In this document: one piece after another, positions 3,612 through 45,882 of the stretch
Position numbering within the stretch: the first letter of the stretch is position 1
Layout of the letters: the number at the start of each line of letters is the position of its first letter
NCBI GenBank assembly: GCA_964513845.1
Contig: CAZENT010000001.1
Span: 42,450-106,449, forward strand
Length of the DNA stretch: 64,000 nt
Source: an uncultured Pseudomonadales bacterium
GTDB lineage: Bacteria > Patescibacteriota > Microgenomatia > UBA1400 > MFAQ01
Direction: 5' to 3'
Translations under genes and position numbers: made by a program
Notes under the pieces: model-generated
Database searches by the model: none
Seen by the model: only the letters and a program-made list of their open reading frames with translations
Told to the model about the DNA's origin: nothing

Positions 3612-4964
3612 ATGACTTTTGTGACAGAAATATCAACGGAAGAACCGCCATTGTTTGAACTAGAAAAGGGAATGCCTTTGAAAGATTTTTCTGAAATAAT
3701 TGATAAAATCAAGCCAAAATTGGGACTTGAGAGTTCAACCAAATCTTCCAAACCCATATACCCTGAAATAAGGTTTGACGAAGAAGGATCTATGATAGAA
3801 CCGCCGTTGCTTGAACCAGAAAAAAGAACACGATTGAAAAAATTTTCTGATATTATCGAAAAAATCAAGCCAAAATTGAGACTTGAGAGTTCGGCTTCAC
3901 CTTTCGAAGAATCCATATACCCTGAAATAAAGTTTGACGAAGAAGGATCTATGATAGAACCGCCATTGTTTGAACTAGAAAAAAGAATACTATTGAAAGG
4001 ATTTTCTGCAATTTTAGAAAAAATCAAATCAAAATTGAGACTTGAAAGTTCACCTAAATCTGAGACAACTAGAAAATATTTCGAAGATTGGGATGCTCTA
4101 CACTTAGATGCTAACCCGGAAATAAAGGAAACAATGAGAAAAAATATTCTTATTGCTGAAAAACAACACCAAAAAATCTACGAACAAGCTGCTCGTGAGG
4201 CAGGCGTTAGCATTGAAGTATTTAAGAAAAAATTACAAGAAAAAGTTGAAAGGGCGGTTGAGAACTCTAATTTCTTTAGAGCAACAAAAATTAGTGTATT
4301 AGATAAAGTTCTCAATGGAGATGGTCGATTCAAAAGTCAATTTGAAACACATGATAGTGGTGGCTTTTTGAATCCATCTTTTAGAGCATTGGCAGAAATG
4401 AAAATGTTTGGTTTCAATATGCCACCAGGCGGTTTCAAATTTTCCACTGCGGGTTATCATGGGAGCAAAATTCCAGATAGCATTGTGCACGATAACTGTG
4501 AAAGAAGACCAATTTATGGATATTTTTCCGATAATGAACATGGAGAAATCAATGAACGTGGAACAAACCCCCCATCAAATAATTTAGTTCAATATGGCGA
4601 GATAACTGTAAAATTAAAAAGGGATCGGGCTTTAGAAAAAGCAACATTGAGTTTTCAAGACAGCCTTGATTATAAAGACTGTCCTCCAACACCAGCGATA
4701 AAACCACATTTTACGAGCCTAGAAATTGGTGATGCTTATTCTGATGTAATACTAGATAGAGTTGAAAATCCAGGTACAACGAAATGGGGGTCAGTATACA
4801 CCGAAGCTCAGTTTCATGGGGGGCTAACATTAGACGATATTGATGTAATTTATGTTTCTACCGGTAACAGACTATATGACGACCAGATCATAGAGGTCCG
4901 CGAGATATATAATAGATTTATTCAATCGCATCCCGATTCAGATATTAAATTAATTGAATATTAA
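3612..4964 (+). CDS. Hypothetical protein (450 aa): three N-terminal ~53-aa tandem repeats plus the conserved C-terminal domain shared with 2372..3493
   Basis: ATG at 3612 follows a TATAAT-like box at 3604-3609. Repeats EPPLFELEK...IYPEI(R/K)FDEEGSMI occur three times. The C-terminal domain is homologous to the 373-aa paralog. Confidence 0.7.
   Translation: MTFVTEISTEEPPLFELEKGMPLKDFSEIIDKIKPKLGLESSTKSSKPIYPEIRFDEEGSMIEPPLLEPEKRTRLKKFSDIIEKIKPKLRLESSASPFEESIYPEIKFDEEGSMIEPPLFELEKRILLKGFSAILEKIKSKLRLESSPKSETTRKYFEDWDALHLDANPEIKETMRKNILIAEKQHQKIYEQAAREAGVSIEVFKKKLQEKVERAVENSNFFRATKISVLDKVLNGDGRFKSQFETHDSGGFLNPSFRALAEMKMFGFNMPPGGFKFSTAGYHGSKIPDSIVHDNCERRPIYGYFSDNEHGEINERGTNPPSNNLVQYGEITVKLKRDRALEKATLSFQDSLDYKDCPPTPAIKPHFTSLEIGDAYSDVILDRVENPGTTKWGSVYTEAQFHGGLTLDDIDVIYVSTGNRLYDDQIIEVREIYNRFIQSHPDSDIKLIEY
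3642..4064 (+). repeat. Three tandem ~159-nt (53-codon) coding repeats within the 3612..4964 gene
   Basis: Near-identical DNA units begin gaaccgcc(a/g)ttg(t/c)ttgaac at 3642, 3801 and 3960. The third unit is truncated. The antisense ORF 3599..4027 is an artefact of this repeat. Confidence 0.85.
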
Positions 4965-6294: not shown

Positions 6295-6323
6295 AGCCAA
6301 CGAGAAATCGTTGGCTTTTTTAT
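6295..6323. terminator. Bidirectional rho-independent terminator between convergent genes
   Basis: Stem agccaacga / tcgttggct with loop gaaa, followed by TTTTTTATTT. Confidence 0.65.
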
Positions 6324-42064: not shown

Positions 42065-43351
42065 TTAATCCAAGAACTTGTCGTAACTATACATGTAGAG
42101 CTGAGAGTTGATGGTTTTGAGAATTTCCAGAACTACGGAAACGACGATCAACACACTGGTTCCACCGATGGCTAGAGAAGCAATGCCGGTGAAGCCGGAC
42201 ATAATCGAGGGAAGAATGGCAACTAGCCCTAAGAAACTGGCACCAACGAGGGTAATACGACCCAAGACAAAGTTTAGATAGTTGACCGTATCGGGACCCG
42301 GCCTAATACCGGGGATAAACGATCCAGATGAGCGAAGATCTTTAGCAATTTTTTCGGGATTAAAAACGACGGCGGTGTAAAAGTAAGAGAAAGCCACAAC
42401 CAAAACAAAGTAGAGGACATTATAAAGAACTGAGCTGGGAGCGAGCCAAGTACTTAACGTGGTGGCAAAACCGGCAAGAGTAGGCTGATTAACGCCAGCC
42501 AGAACTCGACTCAGCATACTAGGAATGAGCATAAAAGAAACAGCAAAGATGATTGGGATGACACCGGCCTGATTTAAACGAAGAGGTAGATGACTGCTGG
42601 CAACCGCACTGTAGGAGGCTCCCCCGCCACGTCTGGCTGACTGGATGGGAATTTCGCGAATAGCCTCACCAACTCTGACAATGGCATAAATGGCGGCGAC
42701 GACAAAAAATAAGAAGATTAAGTAGGTAAATATCTTGGATTGATCCATGGTGGTAATGGTTTGGATGATGTTGATAGGAATACGAGTGACGATACCAACA
42801 AAAATGATAAGACTAATGCCGTTGCCTAAACCATAATCGTTTAGCTGCTCACCAAGCCAGATAAGAAGTGAGGTACCGGCGGCGAGAGTAAAGACGATGG
42901 AAGCTAGCTGTAAGGGATCGGCCGTGGTAGTGAGGCCTTGTTTTTGAAGAAGGAAAATAAGGGCAATGCCTTGTAGGAAACAAAGAGGAATGGTAAGAAG
43001 GCGGGTGTATTGATTGATCTTTTGGCGACCATAATCCCCTTCTTTTTGGAGAGCTTCGAGCTTGGGAATAACCATACCGAGCATTTGGAAAATAATGGAG
43101 GCGTTGATGTAGGGGTTTAAACCAAGAGCCATAATGGAAAAGTTTCCCAAGGTACCGCCGGAAAAAACATCGAGAAGAGAAAGAAAGGCTGAGGAATTGA
43201 ACATTTCCTTAAGAGCGGAAAGGTTGATACCCGGAGCCGGGACATGAGCAACTAGACGGAAAATGGCAATAACAACAGCAGTAAAAATCAAACGCTTGCG
43301 AAGTTCTTTGATTTTCAACAAGGCGCGCAGAGGGGCTAATAAATTATTCAT
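42065..43351 (-). CDS. secY: Preprotein translocase subunit SecY
   Basis: 428 aa, 10 TM helices, with conserved SecY motifs (GGTSVLI, RPG...YL). Confidence 0.9.
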   Translation of the reverse strand: MNNLLAPLRALLKIKELRKRLIFTAVVIAIFRLVAHVPAPGINLSALKEMFNSSAFLSLLDVFSGGTLGNFSIMALGLNPYINASIIFQMLGMVIPKLEALQKEGDYGRQKINQYTRLLTIPLCFLQGIALIFLLQKQGLTTTADPLQLASIVFTLAAGTSLLIWLGEQLNDYGLGNGISLIIFVGIVTRIPINIIQTITTMDQSKIFTYLIFLFFVVAAIYAIVRVGEAIREIPIQSARRGGGASYSAVASSHLPLRLNQAGVIPIIFAVSFMLIPSMLSRVLAGVNQPTLAGFATTLSTWLAPSSVLYNVLYFVLVVAFSYFYTAVVFNPEKIAKDLRSSGSFIPGIRPGPDTVNYLNFVLGRITLVGASFLGLVAILPSIMSGFTGIASLAIGGTSVLIVVSVVLEILKTINSQLYMYSYDKFLD

Positions 43352-43356
43352 TGGTT

Positions 43357-43869
43357 TTATTTTAGCAGGTTAGGAGAAGCGATTAAGGCTATATTGTAAA
43401 CGAAAAATGTTGGAGTTTGTTCAAGAATAATGCCGGCTTTCCGACAGGTGGCAAAAAGATTCACACCCATAGCCTCTGGGTTAAATATCACTTCGCCTAA
43501 AATATCTTGGCGATTGGGTAACTCCTCCTCAAGAAAATGGTGGAGCTCGCTTCTGGTGTGACCCTGCCAGTGACGAGGATTTCTAAGTGCTCTGTCTGTC
43601 CAGTCGGGGTGCTTTTCTCTTTTTTGGGCAAGATATTCGGCAAAATTGAAACGTACTGCAGCAATGTAGACCTCTTGGGAATATACATCAGGAAAATAGG
43701 GAATGTGGGGAGGGCAACCCTCTTTGTAGTTCCAGTTTGGACAGCCTTTGGGATGGGCGGGGTAAGGGTCAAGACAGTGAGCTTTGATGCGAGGATCACA
43801 GACGACCTCGACCGGACCTGAGAAAAACTTTTCTCGCTCAATGAATTTTATTTCGCCTTCGACAGTCAT
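43357..43869 (-). CDS. Hypothetical Cys/His-rich protein (170 aa) immediately upstream of secY
   Basis: ATG at 43869 (MTVEGEIKF...) just after a terminator. Contains HCLDPYPAHPKGCPNWNYKEGCPPH. Lies 5 nt from the secY start. Confidence 0.5.
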   Translation of the reverse strand: MTVEGEIKFIEREKFFSGPVEVVCDPRIKAHCLDPYPAHPKGCPNWNYKEGCPPHIPYFPDVYSQEVYIAAVRFNFAEYLAQKREKHPDWTDRALRNPRHWQGHTRSELHHFLEEELPNRQDILGEVIFNPEAMGVNLFATCRKAGIILEQTPTFFVYNIALIASPNLLK

Positions 43870-43895
43870 AGTTAAGGATTTTACACCAAGAAAAA

Positions 43896-43919
43896 ACCCA
43901 CCCGGTGAGGGGTGGGTTG
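43896..43919 (-). terminator. Rho-independent terminator (minus strand) ending the rplO-side two-gene unit
   Basis: Minus strand reads aacccaccc-ctcacc-gggtgggtt followed by TTTTTT. Confidence 0.6.
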
Positions 43920-43931
43920 TTAACAAAGAAA

Positions 43932-44405
43932 TTATTCTTCGCGTTTGAAACCAGTAACTTCGCCGACAGCATCGGTTATTACTTGAAATGGAGGAAGTGG
44001 CTCTCCACCTGGGACCATGATCATTTCGCCAAATGCTTCTATAAAGAAAGATGTGGCGGGCATGTCCAGAAAAGTCAGATCAAAATCTTTTCCCAAGCTA
44101 TGCATCATAAGAAAATGATGGATGGCCTTGGCAATGGCCTCTTTGGTTGTGGCATCACGTTCTTCTTTGCCAAACCAGCTTACTGTCCCGTGGATATTAG
44201 GACACGAGGCTGTATATCCATTATCTTGAAGAAGATAATATCTCTCTGTAGAGAGATGTACTTCCACATCAGAGTCACGGCAGTTTGCAGCTTTCGCAAC
44301 TGCTTGCTTGAGTTTTACAACCAGTTTGGGGTTGAAAAACTGAATTCTTCCTTCATGAAAAACCTTAAATGACTCCGGGAAATTTACTAAGAAAATGCAG
44401 GGCAT
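43932..44405 (-). CDS. Hypothetical protein (157 aa) beginning Met-Pro; possible tautomerase-superfamily-like fold
   Basis: MPCIFLVNF...VEVHL, with a second beta-alpha-beta-like half. Pro1 directly after Met is a tautomerase hallmark, but the assignment is weak. Confidence 0.45.
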   Translation of the reverse strand: MPCIFLVNFPESFKVFHEGRIQFFNPKLVVKLKQAVAKAANCRDSDVEVHLSTERYYLLQDNGYTASCPNIHGTVSWFGKEERDATTKEAIAKAIHHFLMMHSLGKDFDLTFLDMPATSFFIEAFGEMIMVPGGEPLPPFQVITDAVGEVTGFKREE

Positions 44406-44437
44406 TTTTACTCCTTTGTGAATGAATTAAGAAATAT

Positions 44438-44788
44438 CTAGTTCTCAATCTCGTCGAGTAGCGACAATATCCTTTTGGCATTTGAGGTGTCGATGAGAAC
44501 AACCAAGAACCCACTGATTTCATCGATCCGGATATTTCCATTACCCCATGAAACAACATAGCGATTAGCTATGGTAGTAATGATCAAGCTTTCACGACCA
44601 ACTTCCTTGTCGATCAGTAAGTTTAAATGAGTTCTTAACGCTGCAATTTCTTCGCCTGGAAACTTGAAAAGGAGATTCCCCTTTAAATCATAAAAATACA
44701 AATCGGGAAACCAAAAATCATATTTTGAAGTATCCTTCACTACCAGGGCAAACCCCCTGGCTAACCCAACACGTTTTGAAATAATCAT
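44438..44788 (-). CDS. Hypothetical protein (116 aa)
   Basis: ATG at 44788 is preceded by AAGGAGTGA SD and a TATACT -10-like box. No known motif; possibly roadblock/LC7-like. Confidence 0.45.
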   Translation of the reverse strand: MIISKRVGLARGFALVVKDTSKYDFWFPDLYFYDLKGNLLFKFPGEEIAALRTHLNLLIDKEVGRESLIITTIANRYVVSWGNGNIRIDEISGFLVVLIDTSNAKRILSLLDEIEN

Positions 44789-44844
44789 TTCACTCCTTAT
44801 ATTTTTGAAAGTTCGAGATGCCTATAGTATACCATAACAAGTCT

Positions 44845-44870
44845 AAAAAGCCCCAAATAGGGGCCTTTTT
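44845..44870 (-). terminator. Rho-independent terminator immediately downstream of rplO
   Basis: Minus strand reads aggcccc-tattt-ggggct followed by TTTTTAG. Confidence 0.6.
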
Positions 44871-44890
44871 GCGTAGGATGTAATAAATGT

Positions 44891-45343
44891 TTACTTGTTG
44901 ATGAAGGAGTATTTACCGCCGGCTTTTTCGATGGCTTTAATGGCTCCAGCTGAGGCTAAAACATTGATGTCTAGAGCTTTTTCAAGTTTACCTGTGGCAA
45001 TGATCTTGAATCCTCGTTTGGCTTCTTTGTCACTAATTTTGAGAGTTTTTACAAGAGCGGCAGTATCGACGACAGCTTTGTCTTCGAAGTAGCTCGTGAG
45101 AATATCAAAGTTAACGGTGATTGGCTGAAGATTGATTACTTGGAATCTGTGCTTACCTTTTATGAAAGGGGTACGACGAACAATTGGAAGCTGACCACCT
45201 TCGAACCACAATGGGATGACTCCGCGGGTCTTTTGACCTTTTTGTCCACGACCGACGGTGTGACCACCAACTCCGGAACCGAAGCCACGACCTAGGCGTT
45301 TTTTACCTGTTTTGACTGATTTGGGTAGATTAGATAAGTTCAT
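44891..45343 (-). CDS. rplO: 50S ribosomal protein L15
   Basis: GRGFGSGVGGHTVGRGQKGQKTR is the L15 signature. Confidence 0.9.
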   Translation of the reverse strand: MNLSNLPKSVKTGKKRLGRGFGSGVGGHTVGRGQKGQKTRGVIPLWFEGGQLPIVRRTPFIKGKHRFQVINLQPITVNFDILTSYFEDKAVVDTAALVKTLKISDKEAKRGFKIIATGKLEKALDINVLASAGAIKAIEKAGGKYSFINK

Positions 45344-45348
45344 AGGAT

Positions 45349-45882
45349 TTAGGCTTTTACTTTAATCTCTTTTAAGAGTTTGTATTTTTTGGCGAGAGCT
45401 TCGACCTGCTTGAGGGCTTTGAAAGTAGCTCTGGCATTGGTGGTTTTATTGTTTGAGCCAAGAGCTTTACAGACAATGTCGGTAACACCAGCAGCTTCAA
45501 CAACGGCTCGAATGGAAGAACCAGCAATAATACCAGTACCCTTGGGAGCTGGGCGGAAAAGAACCTTGGAGGCGCCGAACTTGGAAATGGTTTCGTAAGG
45601 GATGGTGCCATTGACCAAGGGAACCTGAACGAGGTCACGATTACTAAGACGAATAGCTTTTTTGATAGCGTCGGCAACGTTTGGGGCTTTGGCGAGGCCA
45701 AGACCAACTTTTCCCTTTTTGTCACCGGTAACGACTAGAGCAGAGAAAGAAACGTTGGAGCCACCTTGTGTCTTTTTACTAACACGGCGAATTTGAAGAA
45801 CTTGTTCGAAACCATCGGATTGAGGACGATCATCACGACGAGGGCCACGATTGGAGTTGTTTTGATTATTTTGAGGATTCAT
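45349..45882 (-). CDS. rpsE: 30S ribosomal protein S5
   Basis: S5 dsRBD plus C-terminal domain. Directly abuts rplO, with no rpmD between them. Confidence 0.9.
   Translation of the reverse strand: MNPQNNQNNSNRGPRRDDRPQSDGFEQVLQIRRVSKKTQGGSNVSFSALVVTGDKKGKVGLGLAKAPNVADAIKKAIRLSNRDLVQVPLVNGTIPYETISKFGASKVLFRPAPKGTGIIAGSSIRAVVEAAGVTDIVCKALGSNNKTTNARATFKALKQVEALAKKYKLLKEIKVKA

Follow-up and report, generated by a model that had tools for sequence, protein, structure and literature searches.

Adjacency of rplO and secY is close to universal, and the S10-spc-alpha cluster to which they belong serves as a textbook case of gene order conservation. In the 64-kb stretch of DNA analysed here (the window), three other genes lie between the two. 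What are these genes, and how did they come to occupy this junction? SecY relatives at 74-93% identity are found in Collierbacteria MAGs, and the window organism is a member of Candidatus Collierbacteria (Microgenomates/CPR). We consider it probable that its spc operon is cut after rplO and that the resulting boundary is a flexible islet of exchanged small genes, occupied here by a g116-g157 unit and g170.

A sequence-only reading of the locus had described a terminator-flanked two-gene module between rplO and secY. The open reading frame (ORF) listing and a direct reading of the sequence recover every feature that it named, all on the minus strand. In 5' to 3' order these are rplO (ribosomal protein L15; 44891..45343; Pfam Ribosomal_L27A, 3.2e-10), a putative terminator, an extended -10 box, g116 (44438..44788), g157 (43932..44405), a second putative terminator, g170 (43357..43869) and secY (42065..43351; Pfam SecY, 5.6e-101). 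The intervening ORFs encode an orphan protein of 116 aa, a predicted tautomerase-superfamily protein of 157 aa with a Met-Pro-Cys N-terminus, and a Cys/His protein of 170 aa. Although g116 and g157 are present as described, the interval holds three genes rather than two: g170 lies there as well and is likewise missing from the canonical operon. The SD sequence of g116 is AAGGAG at 44798-44793, 6 nt 5' of its ATG; the same SD sequence stands upstream of the g157 start, and the g157 ORF has no alternative upstream start.

Independent assemblies yield this arrangement in at least 8 public contigs, which derive from at least 7 runs. The GC and GC3 of the module are native and match the genome, and a foreign origin was rejected on this compositional evidence. 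A repeat search around the module returned no target-site duplications and no terminal inverted repeats, with only the terminator stems repeating, and no transposase or integrase was found between rpsJ and rpsI in the window strain. An Rfam scan of positions 43000-45500 gave one sub-threshold HTH-XRE match, which we take to be chance.

Variation of the rplO-secY interval among Collierbacteria

The comparative loci come mostly from MAG or metagenome contigs with only ~6 kb of flank. In 24 Collierbacteria loci the gap between rplO and secY measures 559-5058 bp, versus 48 bp or less in eight of nine outgroup loci (the ninth, L044, has 224 bp). The 121 ORFs from 34 intervals group into ~15 recurrent families of small genes, which are combined differently from locus to locus and are nearly all co-oriented. 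Outside the interval, neither the rest of the 64-kb window nor the ~6-kb flanks yielded members of these cassette families. Both g116 and g157 are confined to a minority of Collierbacteria intervals. Because their distribution is patchy within the lineage and the outgroup gaps are short, we regard the two genes as an insertion rather than a universal component of the operon, as had been proposed. The idea of one insertion event in an operon that is collinear elsewhere does not hold, since the window instead displays one configuration of a lineage-wide hypervariable region built from those ~15 families. A literature search for a hot spot between rplO and secY returned nothing relevant.

Nor are g116 and g157 an obligate pair, as their description as one unit had implied. 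The g157 gene occurs without g116 in six loci (L020, L027, L031, L054, L050 and L087), and g116 occurs without g157 in L014, L030, L038/L052 and L107. Where both are present they may still be separated: in L004 a putative terminator with a TTGACA-17-TATAGT promoter behind it stands between them, and in L010 a putative terminator and additional genes do so. The L010 interval also holds an IS200-type Y1 transposase gene (Pfam Y1_Tnp, 6.5e-26).

Exchange at the level of single genes is evident from a co-occurring strain (L001-L003), whose g157 allele has 69.4% nucleotide identity to that of the window between flanks that are 95-100% identical. For this allele pair pS is 0.71 and dS is ~2.2 (saturated), versus pS values of 0-0.22 for neighbouring genes. 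The divergence begins and ends abruptly, at the start codon on one side and, on the 3' side, at hairpin 2. The replaced g157 protein is 66% identical, and g116 alongside it differs by only 2 residues. That the g157 swap leaves g116 nearly unchanged argues against a co-evolving pair, and g116 is an independent cassette rather than an obligate partner. The dN/dS ratios are 0.10 for g157 (against the divergent allele) and 0.11 for g116, and homologues of the module genes at 30-66% identity are present at the same locus in other species; this purifying selection and these homologues indicate that both are real genes. Three of the four g157/g170 haplotype combinations recur, with no fewer than 2 assemblies for each. 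Metagenome assembly can produce strain-switch chimeras that would look like such mosaicism, although each haplotype recurs in at least 2 assemblies.

Predicted terminators and promoter-like boxes at the junction

Two hairpins bracket the g116-g157 unit. Hairpin 1, which follows rplO (44845..44870, minus strand; AAAAAGGCCCC-TATTT-GGGGCTTTTT), has a 10-bp stem with a dG of -15.6 kcal/mol and a z-score of -3.2, and none of 200 shuffled sequences folds as well. Its layout of A-tract, GC stem and T-tract is of the bidirectional type. Hairpin 2, which follows g157 (43891..43918, minus strand; AACCCACCC-CTCACC-GGGTGGGTT plus T6), is of the CCACCC-N6-GGGTGG type and has 9 pairs, 6 of them GC, with a dG of -16.4. 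Both consist of a GC-rich stem-loop and then a U-run located 3' of a stop codon, as is characteristic of intrinsic terminators. Sites with at least 9 pairs, at least 5 GC pairs and a T-run number just four in the 64-kb window; hairpin 2 is among them, and it is the only one within a ~24-kb co-directional stretch between sites at 59.3 and 34.8 kb.

The position of the rplO-proximal hairpin is kept in at least 10 other species-level loci, and different, compensating stem sequences are seen in L009, L010, L012, L014, L015, L030 and L033-L036. Hairpins of the second type are found at 29 distinct sites, every one within a Collierbacteria rplO-secY interval, and only once in the window. Similar hairpins (CCACCC-N3-9-GGGTGG plus a T-run) recur at cassette borders in many loci, and in Collierbacteria intervals -10 boxes come after the hairpins. 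We considered the 18-mer of the hairpin as a lineage-specific recombination site. Over 120 unrelated metagenome contigs, spanning all GC contents, carry the exact 18-mer, often with a T-run after it, and Collierbacteria-like contigs account for only 7 of 120 among the matches listed. Because the exact 18-mer is so common in unrelated contigs, we reject the hairpin as a sequence-specific recombination element.

Promoter-like boxes accompany these hairpins. A putative extended -10 box read from the sequence, TGgTATACT, lies 5' of g116 (44826..44834, minus strand). It is without a good -35 element, and a generic two-hexamer promoter scan found nothing at this position. Equivalent boxes follow the rplO stop codon in relatives, as TGGTATGCT in L050, TGATATAAT in L010 and TGGTACAAT in L030. 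A -10-like box, TAAAAT (43878..43883, minus strand), forms part of a conserved TTGGTGTAAAAT and lies 8 nt 5' of the g170 start codon. The 12-mer that holds it is kept in the window-type strains and in L009, L010 and L050, whereas GGTGTAAAAT is located 8-12 nt before the g170 ATG in L014, L015, L034 and L038, and AGTGTAAAAT takes this place in L013. The g170 transcript may have a leaderless start.

Finally, an extended -10 promoter-like box, TGCTAAAAT (43359..43367, minus strand), overlaps the g170 stop codon and ends 7 nt before the secY ATG. Of 33 Collierbacteria loci, 32 have the consensus TGnTA(A/G)AAT at a distance of 7-14 nt 5' of the secY ATG, as against none of eight outgroups. The sequence-only reading had anticipated that secY would require its own promoter or readthrough, and this conserved element is a candidate for such a promoter. 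Its suggestion that the g116-g157 unit carries its own promoter-like box and terminators is also borne out at the level of motifs, whose positions are conserved in relatives. Given the recurrent rplO-proximal terminator and the near-constant secY box (32 of 33 loci), the spc operon seems to be split after rplO, such that rplO appears to be the last gene of an upstream transcription unit and secY the first conserved gene of a downstream unit. The secY mRNA is probably leaderless, because the extended -10 box is so near to the ATG.

Proteins encoded by g157, g170 and g116

The g157 protein, with the N-terminus MPCIFLV, had been proposed to belong to the tautomerase superfamily on account of its N-terminal Pro and duplicated beta-alpha-beta halves. 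An AF2 monomer model built with 47 sequences (pLDDT 92.7, pTM 0.84), which replaces one built with 3 sequences (pLDDT 52.8), shows two fused beta-alpha-beta units per chain and a C-terminal extension, and Foldseek results are consistent with a tautomerase fold. The 47 relatives give Pfam matches to DUF1904 (15 relatives, best 2.5e-7), Tautomerase_2 (5), Tautomerase (3) and CHMI (2), while the window protein itself has no match to the Pfam tautomerase clan even at E<=1, and none in NCBIfam, PHROG or PADLOC. A profile search against PDB sequences places MSAD, VC0714, 4-OT and MIF at the top, with weak E-values (0.031 for MSAD, 0.14 for VC0714). Taken together, the model, Foldseek and the relatives' Pfam matches support the proposal, and we place g157, with its two fused beta-alpha-beta units, in the tautomerase superfamily.

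Long members of this superfamily (MIF/D-DT, cis-CaaD/Cg10062, MSAD, fused 4-OT and DUF1904, the last being PF08921 with PDB entries 1u9d and 4m1a) share with g157 a Pro after Met1. Its sequence identity to any solved member is, however, just 8-20%. The MIF active-site set comprises Pro1, Lys32, Ile64, Tyr95 and Asn97. Membership in the MIF family (PF01187) was rejected, as neither the window protein nor any of the 47 relatives has a MIF Pfam match; MIF PDB sequences score at E 1.4-2.3, and the likeness is in fold only.

Pro directly follows Met in 38 of the 47 relatives, plus 2 whose starts are probably mis-called. It is absent from 7-9 of the 47, so Pro-1 catalysis is not guaranteed. A conserved Cys occupies position 3 in 33 of 47, making the MPC(I/L)F N-terminus distinctive. 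The second helix opens with an R83...K88 motif (81-EERDATTK-88), presumably reminiscent of the 'GRxxxxK' motif of 4-OT-type units. The C-terminal extension of ~35 residues (a strand and a helix at 140-151) is common only to the closest relatives. Removal of Met would expose the putative catalytic Pro at the N-terminus, and the modelled fold suggests that g157 is most likely an oligomeric, Pro-1-dependent small-molecule enzyme, with tautomerase, isomerase, hydratase or decarboxylase activity among the candidates. Enzymes of the superfamily form trimers or hexamers whose active sites lie where subunits meet. The family is tiny, with 49 representatives among 1.84e9 clusters, and a word-indexed homology search returned 3 clusters. 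Its more distant relatives reside in unrelated genomic contexts. No substrate-related genes were found near g157, no relatives were found in a viral-contig scan, and a literature search on DUF1904 gave nothing relevant.

The g170 protein approaches PF10050 (DUF2284) at 23.3 bits against a cut-off of 25, a borderline match that covers residues 41-86 only. All 11 members of its family match PF10050 at E<=0.1 (best E 5.5e-6) and share invariant C32, C43, C52, C142, H39, H87 and H104, and we predict g170 to be a distant DUF2284-like metal-binding protein. Searches of NCBIfam, PHROGs and PADLOC returned nothing for g170, a viral-contig scan found no relatives, and a literature search on DUF2284 found nothing relevant. 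The gene is present in 14 of 34 intervals, often directly 5' of secY, and belongs to the same variable pool as g116 and g157. In the window the gap to secY is 5 nt, and the 3' end of g170 contains the secY promoter-like box.

The g116 family is seen only in Collierbacteria rplO-secY intervals, with 8 members from 7 loci and further ones in L004 and L107, and has invariant W26, P28 and G37. A profile search of 5.8e9 proteins found only 3 clusters, and a word-indexed search found 1. The protein has no match in Pfam, PDB sequences, NCBIfam, PHROG or PADLOC; its profile retrieved only designed proteins from the PDB, at chance level. An earlier suggestion of a roadblock/LC7-like protein finds no support, as g116 and 5 relatives have no match in Pfam, Robl_LC7 included, at E<=1. 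An hhalign comparison of g116 with g157 gave a probability of 1.2%, and the cassette families show no credible remote relationships.

Origin and exchange of the interval genes

We favor an explanation in which the spc operon of Collierbacteria is cut past rplO by an intrinsic terminator, with secY driven by its own extended -10 promoter. The transcription boundary so created would tolerate insertions, and would house an islet of small, co-oriented accessory genes subject to gain, loss and exchange within Collierbacteria, many equipped with a -10 box and a hairpin terminator of their own. Exchange probably proceeds via homologous recombination, for which the conserved flanks and cassette borders would provide the anchors. 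In the window, g116 and g157 appear to form one bicistronic, terminator-insulated unit, with g170 next, just 5' of secY.

Flexible genomic islets are known from pangenome studies as replacement or additive islands flanked by core genes. The Collierbacteria locus is alike in its fixed position between two highly conserved core genes, its content that varies among close relatives, its divergent alleles swapped within near-identical flanks, and its native composition. It differs in that the site is inside the S10-spc-alpha super-operon rather than beside a tRNA or at an operon periphery, and in that the units are single small genes, many with their own -10 box and hairpin, with no recombinase associated.

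A more specialized, and in our judgment unlikely, alternative is that the junction is a dedicated cassette-exchange site independent of any recombinase, at which promoter-ORF-hairpin units, g157 and g116 among them, would be shuffled between lineages through recombination at their borders (the CCACCC...GGGTGG hairpin and a conserved leader). The site would maintain a private, fast-turnover gene pool for conflict with hosts or episymbionts or with phages, and its place between two essential, highly expressed units would guard it against loss.

It is quite unlikely that the islet is a miniature defence island with g116-g157 as a toxin-antitoxin, immunity or anti-phage pair. Such a role might be expected of genes that are small, fast-diverging, lineage-restricted and patchy, that reside at a gain/loss hot spot among cassette families mostly without known function, and that include an allele swapped between co-occurring strains. 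However, searches of PADLOC, Pfam, NCBIfam and PHROG matched neither g116 nor g157 to a known defence or toxin-antitoxin family, no viral relatives were found in the viral-contig scans, and the g157 product, under purifying selection, has the fold of an enzyme. Moreover, each gene occurs independently of the other, and g157 has been replaced by a 66%-identical protein beside a g116 with 2 changes.

Very unlikely, we believe, is a lineage-specific housekeeping role in which the genes encode new ribosome-, translation- or Sec-associated factors positioned for co-expression. The co-orientation of the genes within the ribosomal protein super-operon is suggestive, as is the frequent placement of g170 against secY with the secY box in its 3' end. 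Most Collierbacteria intervals lack g116 and g157, however, and the unit is bracketed by terminators with its own promoter-like box. A highly divergent g157 allele in a near-identical background also speaks against this role, and to our knowledge the tautomerase fold has no ribosomal or Sec function.

Still more improbable is arrival on an insertion sequence, transposon, integron cassette or prophage fragment through site-specific insertion. The Y1 transposase gene in the L010 interval and the hairpin plus T-run repeated at cassette borders recall mobile elements, and the predicted order of terminator, promoter-like box, one or two small accessory genes and terminator is that of phage morons, which are likewise placed co-oriented between genes that are adjacent elsewhere. 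In contrast to morons, the rplO-secY unit is chromosomal, located in a ribosomal operon rather than a prophage, and the viral-contig scans found no relatives. In the window strain the segment from rpsJ to rpsI is free of transposase and integrase genes, the terminator stems are the only direct or inverted repeats that flank the module, and GC is native; and the hairpin 18-mer, common in unrelated contigs, is by sequence alone no dedicated recombination site. Integron arrays also carry tandem, co-oriented, unrelated small ORFs of variable content with short inverted repeats at cassette 3' ends. Unlike those, the cassettes here have their own putative promoters, no IntI integrase or attI is seen, and the recurring repeat, a GC hairpin of 18-24 nt with a T-run, is of the kind usual in terminators and unlike a 57-141 nt attC. 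An integron cassette array was rejected given the lack of a recombinase between rpsJ and rpsI and the widespread occurrence of this short terminator-type hairpin in unrelated contigs.

Spurious ORFs or mis-assembly, conceivable for an uncultured organism whose assembly could contain strain-switch chimeras, are already effectively refuted by the identical arrangement in independent assemblies from several runs, the purifying selection on both genes, their homologues at the same locus in other species and the confident fold prediction for g157.

The flexible islet we propose would mean that, throughout a CPR lineage, the rplO-secY junction has apparently turned into a transcription boundary, as judged from motifs, and was then colonised by small accessory genes. 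Thus, even the most constrained operons can gain a flexible islet. The locus is easily amplified, bracketed as it is by two universal marker genes, and so samples strain-level accessory diversity in uncultured Collierbacteria. Among its contents, g157 represents a small, previously unannotated branch of the tautomerase superfamily distinguished by its MPC(I/L)F N-terminus, and a putative Pro-1 enzyme under allele replacement is unexpected in organisms of minimal metabolism.

Gene content of the rplO-secY interval

On the minus strand of the window, the gene order is rpsE, rplO (45343..44891; Pfam L15), g116 (44788..44438), g157 (44405..43932), g170 (43869..43357), secY (43351..42065; Pfam SecY), adk, map and infA, where g116, g157 and g170 are open reading frames (ORFs) of 116, 157 and 170 amino acids. 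A Shine-Dalgarno (SD) sequence, AAGGAG, precedes g116 and follows a hairpin located after rplO, and the 32-nt spacer between g116 and g157 carries an SD sequence and no hairpin. On re-examination, the coordinates and description of a terminator-flanked, two-gene module offered by the sequence-only reading are correct. g116 and g157 are indeed inserted genes; what that reading left out is that g170 is likewise foreign to the canonical rplO-secY junction. Both ORFs are genuine genes in a genuine arrangement: the order recurs in public contigs L001-L008, assembled independently from several sequencing runs, diverged homologues of g116 and g157 occupy the same locus in other species, and between-strain dN/dS is 0.11 for g116 and 0.10 for g157. 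A 155-aa ORF antisense to g157 (43905-44372, plus strand) is probably spurious, because substitutions between alleles fit the minus-strand frame (dN/dS 0.10). A sub-threshold match to the HTH-XRE RNA of Rfam within g116 on the opposite strand (44612-44685, plus strand; E 0.086, 24.4 bits where the gathering score is 49.8) is taken as chance.

The nearest SecY relatives, among contigs representing one genome per species, belong to metagenome-assembled genomes of Candidatus Collierbacteria (Microgenomates, CPR) at 74-93% identity. The distance between rplO and secY is 559-5058 bp in the 24 Collierbacteria loci that hold both genes, versus 48 bp or less in eight of nine outgroup loci (Caldisericum, Dormibacteria, other Microgenomates and others) and 224 bp in the ninth (L044). 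Iterated profile searches with 121 ORFs from 34 intervals yielded about 15 recurrent families that occur in varying combinations and orders, almost all co-oriented with the operon. These include a family 'X' whose function is not known (21 members, 14 loci), g170 (14 loci), g116 (eight members, seven loci), an M28-peptidase-like family matched in Pfam (eight loci), g157 (seven loci), a Rieske-domain protein, methyltransferases, and several families without any Pfam match. Extra copies of interval families are found neither elsewhere in the 64-kb window nor in the ~6-kb flanks of the loci. Across the Collierbacteria loci examined, g116 and g157 are not universal between rplO and secY, as they would be if they were a lineage-conserved operon component. 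Nor is the module the isolated insertion originally read; it represents one of many states that this variable islet takes across the lineage.

Furthermore, g116 and g157 are cassettes independent of each other. They co-occur in the window species, L010 and L004, whereas g157 occurs without g116 in L020, L027, L031, L050, L054 and L087, and g116 occurs without g157 in L014, L030 (two copies), L038/L052 and L107. Even when both are present they can be separated, in L004 by a hairpin terminator and, downstream of it, a TTGACA-17-TATAGT promoter close to consensus, and in L010 by a terminator, another gene and an IS200 gene. Therefore, the apparently bicistronic g116-g157 arrangement of the window is a local configuration.

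For an origin of the module from a mobile element, the window genome offers no recombinase between rpsJ and rpsI, no target duplication around the module and no viral relative. The IS200 gene in L010 shows that this site is open to mobile DNA. The L010 gene (4602-5249, plus strand; related Microgenomates genome) encodes an IS200/IS605-type Y1 transposase (Pfam Y1_Tnp, 6.5e-26) and sits between the g116-like and g157-like genes, beside cassette-border hairpins at 4719-4738 and 4756-4782.

Several other observations concern these loci. A cassette family of ~170 aa with the motif SFGGGLxNGGL...FDYMGSSEFEWG and no Pfam match is present at L009:211-723 and 843-1385 (in tandem), L010:4202-4711, L012:5392-5901 and L016:2960-3664. 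In one non-canonical cluster a hemerythrin gene lies between secY and adk (L054:8030-8452), and in another locus a 1462-aa fibronectin-type-III/DUF2341 protein is encoded right after map, in the place expected for infA (L053:5438-5634).

Predicted transcription boundaries

Hairpin 1, AAAAAGGCCCC-TATTT-GGGGCTTTTT (44870-44845), lies directly 3' of rplO and has a 10-bp stem and a dG of -15.6 kcal/mol that was equalled in 0 of 200 shuffles. Hairpin 2, AACCCACCC-CTCACC-GGGTGGGTT followed by T6 (43918-43891), lies 3' of g157 and has a dG of -16.4. Only four sites in the window, at 6295, 34863, 43918 and 59297, have at least nine stem pairs, at least five GC pairs and a T-run. Across ~24 kb of co-directional genes (59.3 to 34.8 kb), there is no strong terminator-like site other than the pair bracketing g116-g157, in agreement with the proposal of a terminator-insulated unit. 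An extended -10 box, TGgTATACT (44834-44826), is located between hairpin 1 and g116. A hairpin with an A-tract, GC stem and T-tract also follows rplO in L009, L010, L012, L014, L015, L030 and L033-L036, with stem sequences that differ between loci through compensating changes, and a TGnTAnnnT box lies downstream of it in several of these loci.

We located 29 distinct sites with the hairpin 2 type (CCACCC-N3-9-GGGTGG plus a T-run), each inside an rplO-secY interval and usually followed by a -10-like box; there is one in the window and none in ~314 kb of flanking DNA. The idea that this hairpin is a dedicated recombination site is weakened by the abundance of its exact 18-mer, CCACCCCTCACCGGGTGG, in metagenome contigs with no relation to these loci (more than 120, L059-L178, with GC contents of 38 to 78%), where it often precedes a T-run, as a terminator would. 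One sub-group of these contigs shares the tail GGTATTTTTT. CCACCCCTCACCGGGTGG is apparently a terminator sequence that recurs widely.

Most telling for the transcription architecture, as read from conserved motifs, is a putative extended -10 box, TGnTA(A/G)AAT, whose last base lies 7-14 nt upstream of the secY ATG. Of 33 Collierbacteria loci (L002-L054), 32 have it, as does the window (43367-43359), where it overlaps the last codons and stop of g170; none of eight outgroups does. This conservation fits the expectation that secY needs a separate promoter, and the position of the box would imply a leaderless secY mRNA. Where g170 adjoins secY, GGTGTAAAAT (AGTGTAAAAT in L013) is found 8-12 nt before the g170 ATG; in the window, a conserved TAAAAT box (43883-43878) lies 8 nt before the g170 start, with no SD sequence. 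We hypothesize that the spc operon was cut after rplO in the Collierbacteria lineage, that secY, or g170-secY, is transcribed from its own promoter as a leaderless or nearly leaderless mRNA, and that it is this boundary that allows the site to tolerate insertions. If g116 and g157 were instead housekeeping components of the operon, one would expect neither their patchy presence nor their apparent transcriptional insulation, and this reading is disfavoured.

Proteins encoded by the islet

An exhaustive profile search of 1.84 billion clusters recovered only 49 representatives of the g157 family, most of which are 110-135 aa long and start with MPC(I/L)F. Distant relatives reside in unrelated contexts, beside glycosyltransferase/cellulase genes or a peptidase M3 gene. 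Among 47 aligned members, Pfam matches are to DUF1904 (15, best 2.5e-7), Tautomerase_2 (five), Tautomerase (three) and CHMI (two), and a profile search of PDB ranks MSAD, VC0714, 4-OT and MIF highest, albeit with weak E-values. In 38 of 47 relatives Met1 is followed by Pro, and Cys3, H50, G63, H72, W77, R83, K88, F98, H102, D109, F112, D114 and F120 are at least 70% conserved. The suggestion of a Pro-1 tautomerase-fold protein is well founded, with a confidently predicted superfamily fold and a Pro in the N-terminal position. Because none of the curated Pfam families is a match for the window protein, we file g157 as a divergent superfamily member, nearest DUF1904 by sequence; assignment to the MIF family was rejected. 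Its oligomeric state, Met removal, chemistry and substrate would be those suggested by superfamily knowledge.

Relatives of the g116 protein were detected only within Collierbacteria intervals, and it has no match to any family or PDB sequence and no relation to other cassette families in profile-profile comparisons, which leaves its proposed identity as an LC7/roadblock protein unsupported. By sequence, g170 appears to be a distant DUF2284-like protein with invariant residues C32, C43, C52, C142, H39, H87 and H104, and in the window's clade it is the gene that most often sits immediately 5' of secY.

Allele replacement of g157 among strains

In L001-L003, which represent three sequencing runs, rpsE, rplO and g116 are 95-100% identical to the window and g170 and secY are 100% identical, yet g157 is only 69.4% identical (66% at the protein level). 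Divergence starts one base ahead of the ATG and stops at the first base of hairpin 2. The g157 alleles show saturation at synonymous sites (pS 0.71, versus 0-0.22 in neighbouring genes; dS ~2.2) and a dN/dS of 0.10, and therefore both are old and under purifying selection. This pattern indicates import by recombination or long-lived polymorphism rather than fast adaptive change. Because the GC and GC3 of the cassettes match the genome, exchange within the Collierbacteria gene pool seems likely.

L005/L006 match the window at 100% from rplF through g157, save for a handful of single-base changes in rplR, in g116 and in the spacer separating rplO from g116, and carry its g157 allele, but g170 and secY (window 42065-43931) are only 91.8% and 95.6% identical, with the switch at the g157 hairpin. 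This mosaic could reflect either population recombination or a strain-switch assembly chimera. Three of the four possible g157/g170 haplotype combinations are seen, each in at least two assemblies. That g116 and g157 form a defence or toxin-antitoxin pair is disfavoured, since the two genes are distributed independently, do not co-vary when the g157 allele is swapped, and have no family match.

The finding is real, and the main interpretation of the sequence-only reading holds. The larger result is a lineage-wide flexible islet, at what conserved motifs suggest is a newly created transcription boundary in the ribosomal super-operon, that comes with strain-level allele replacement of g157.
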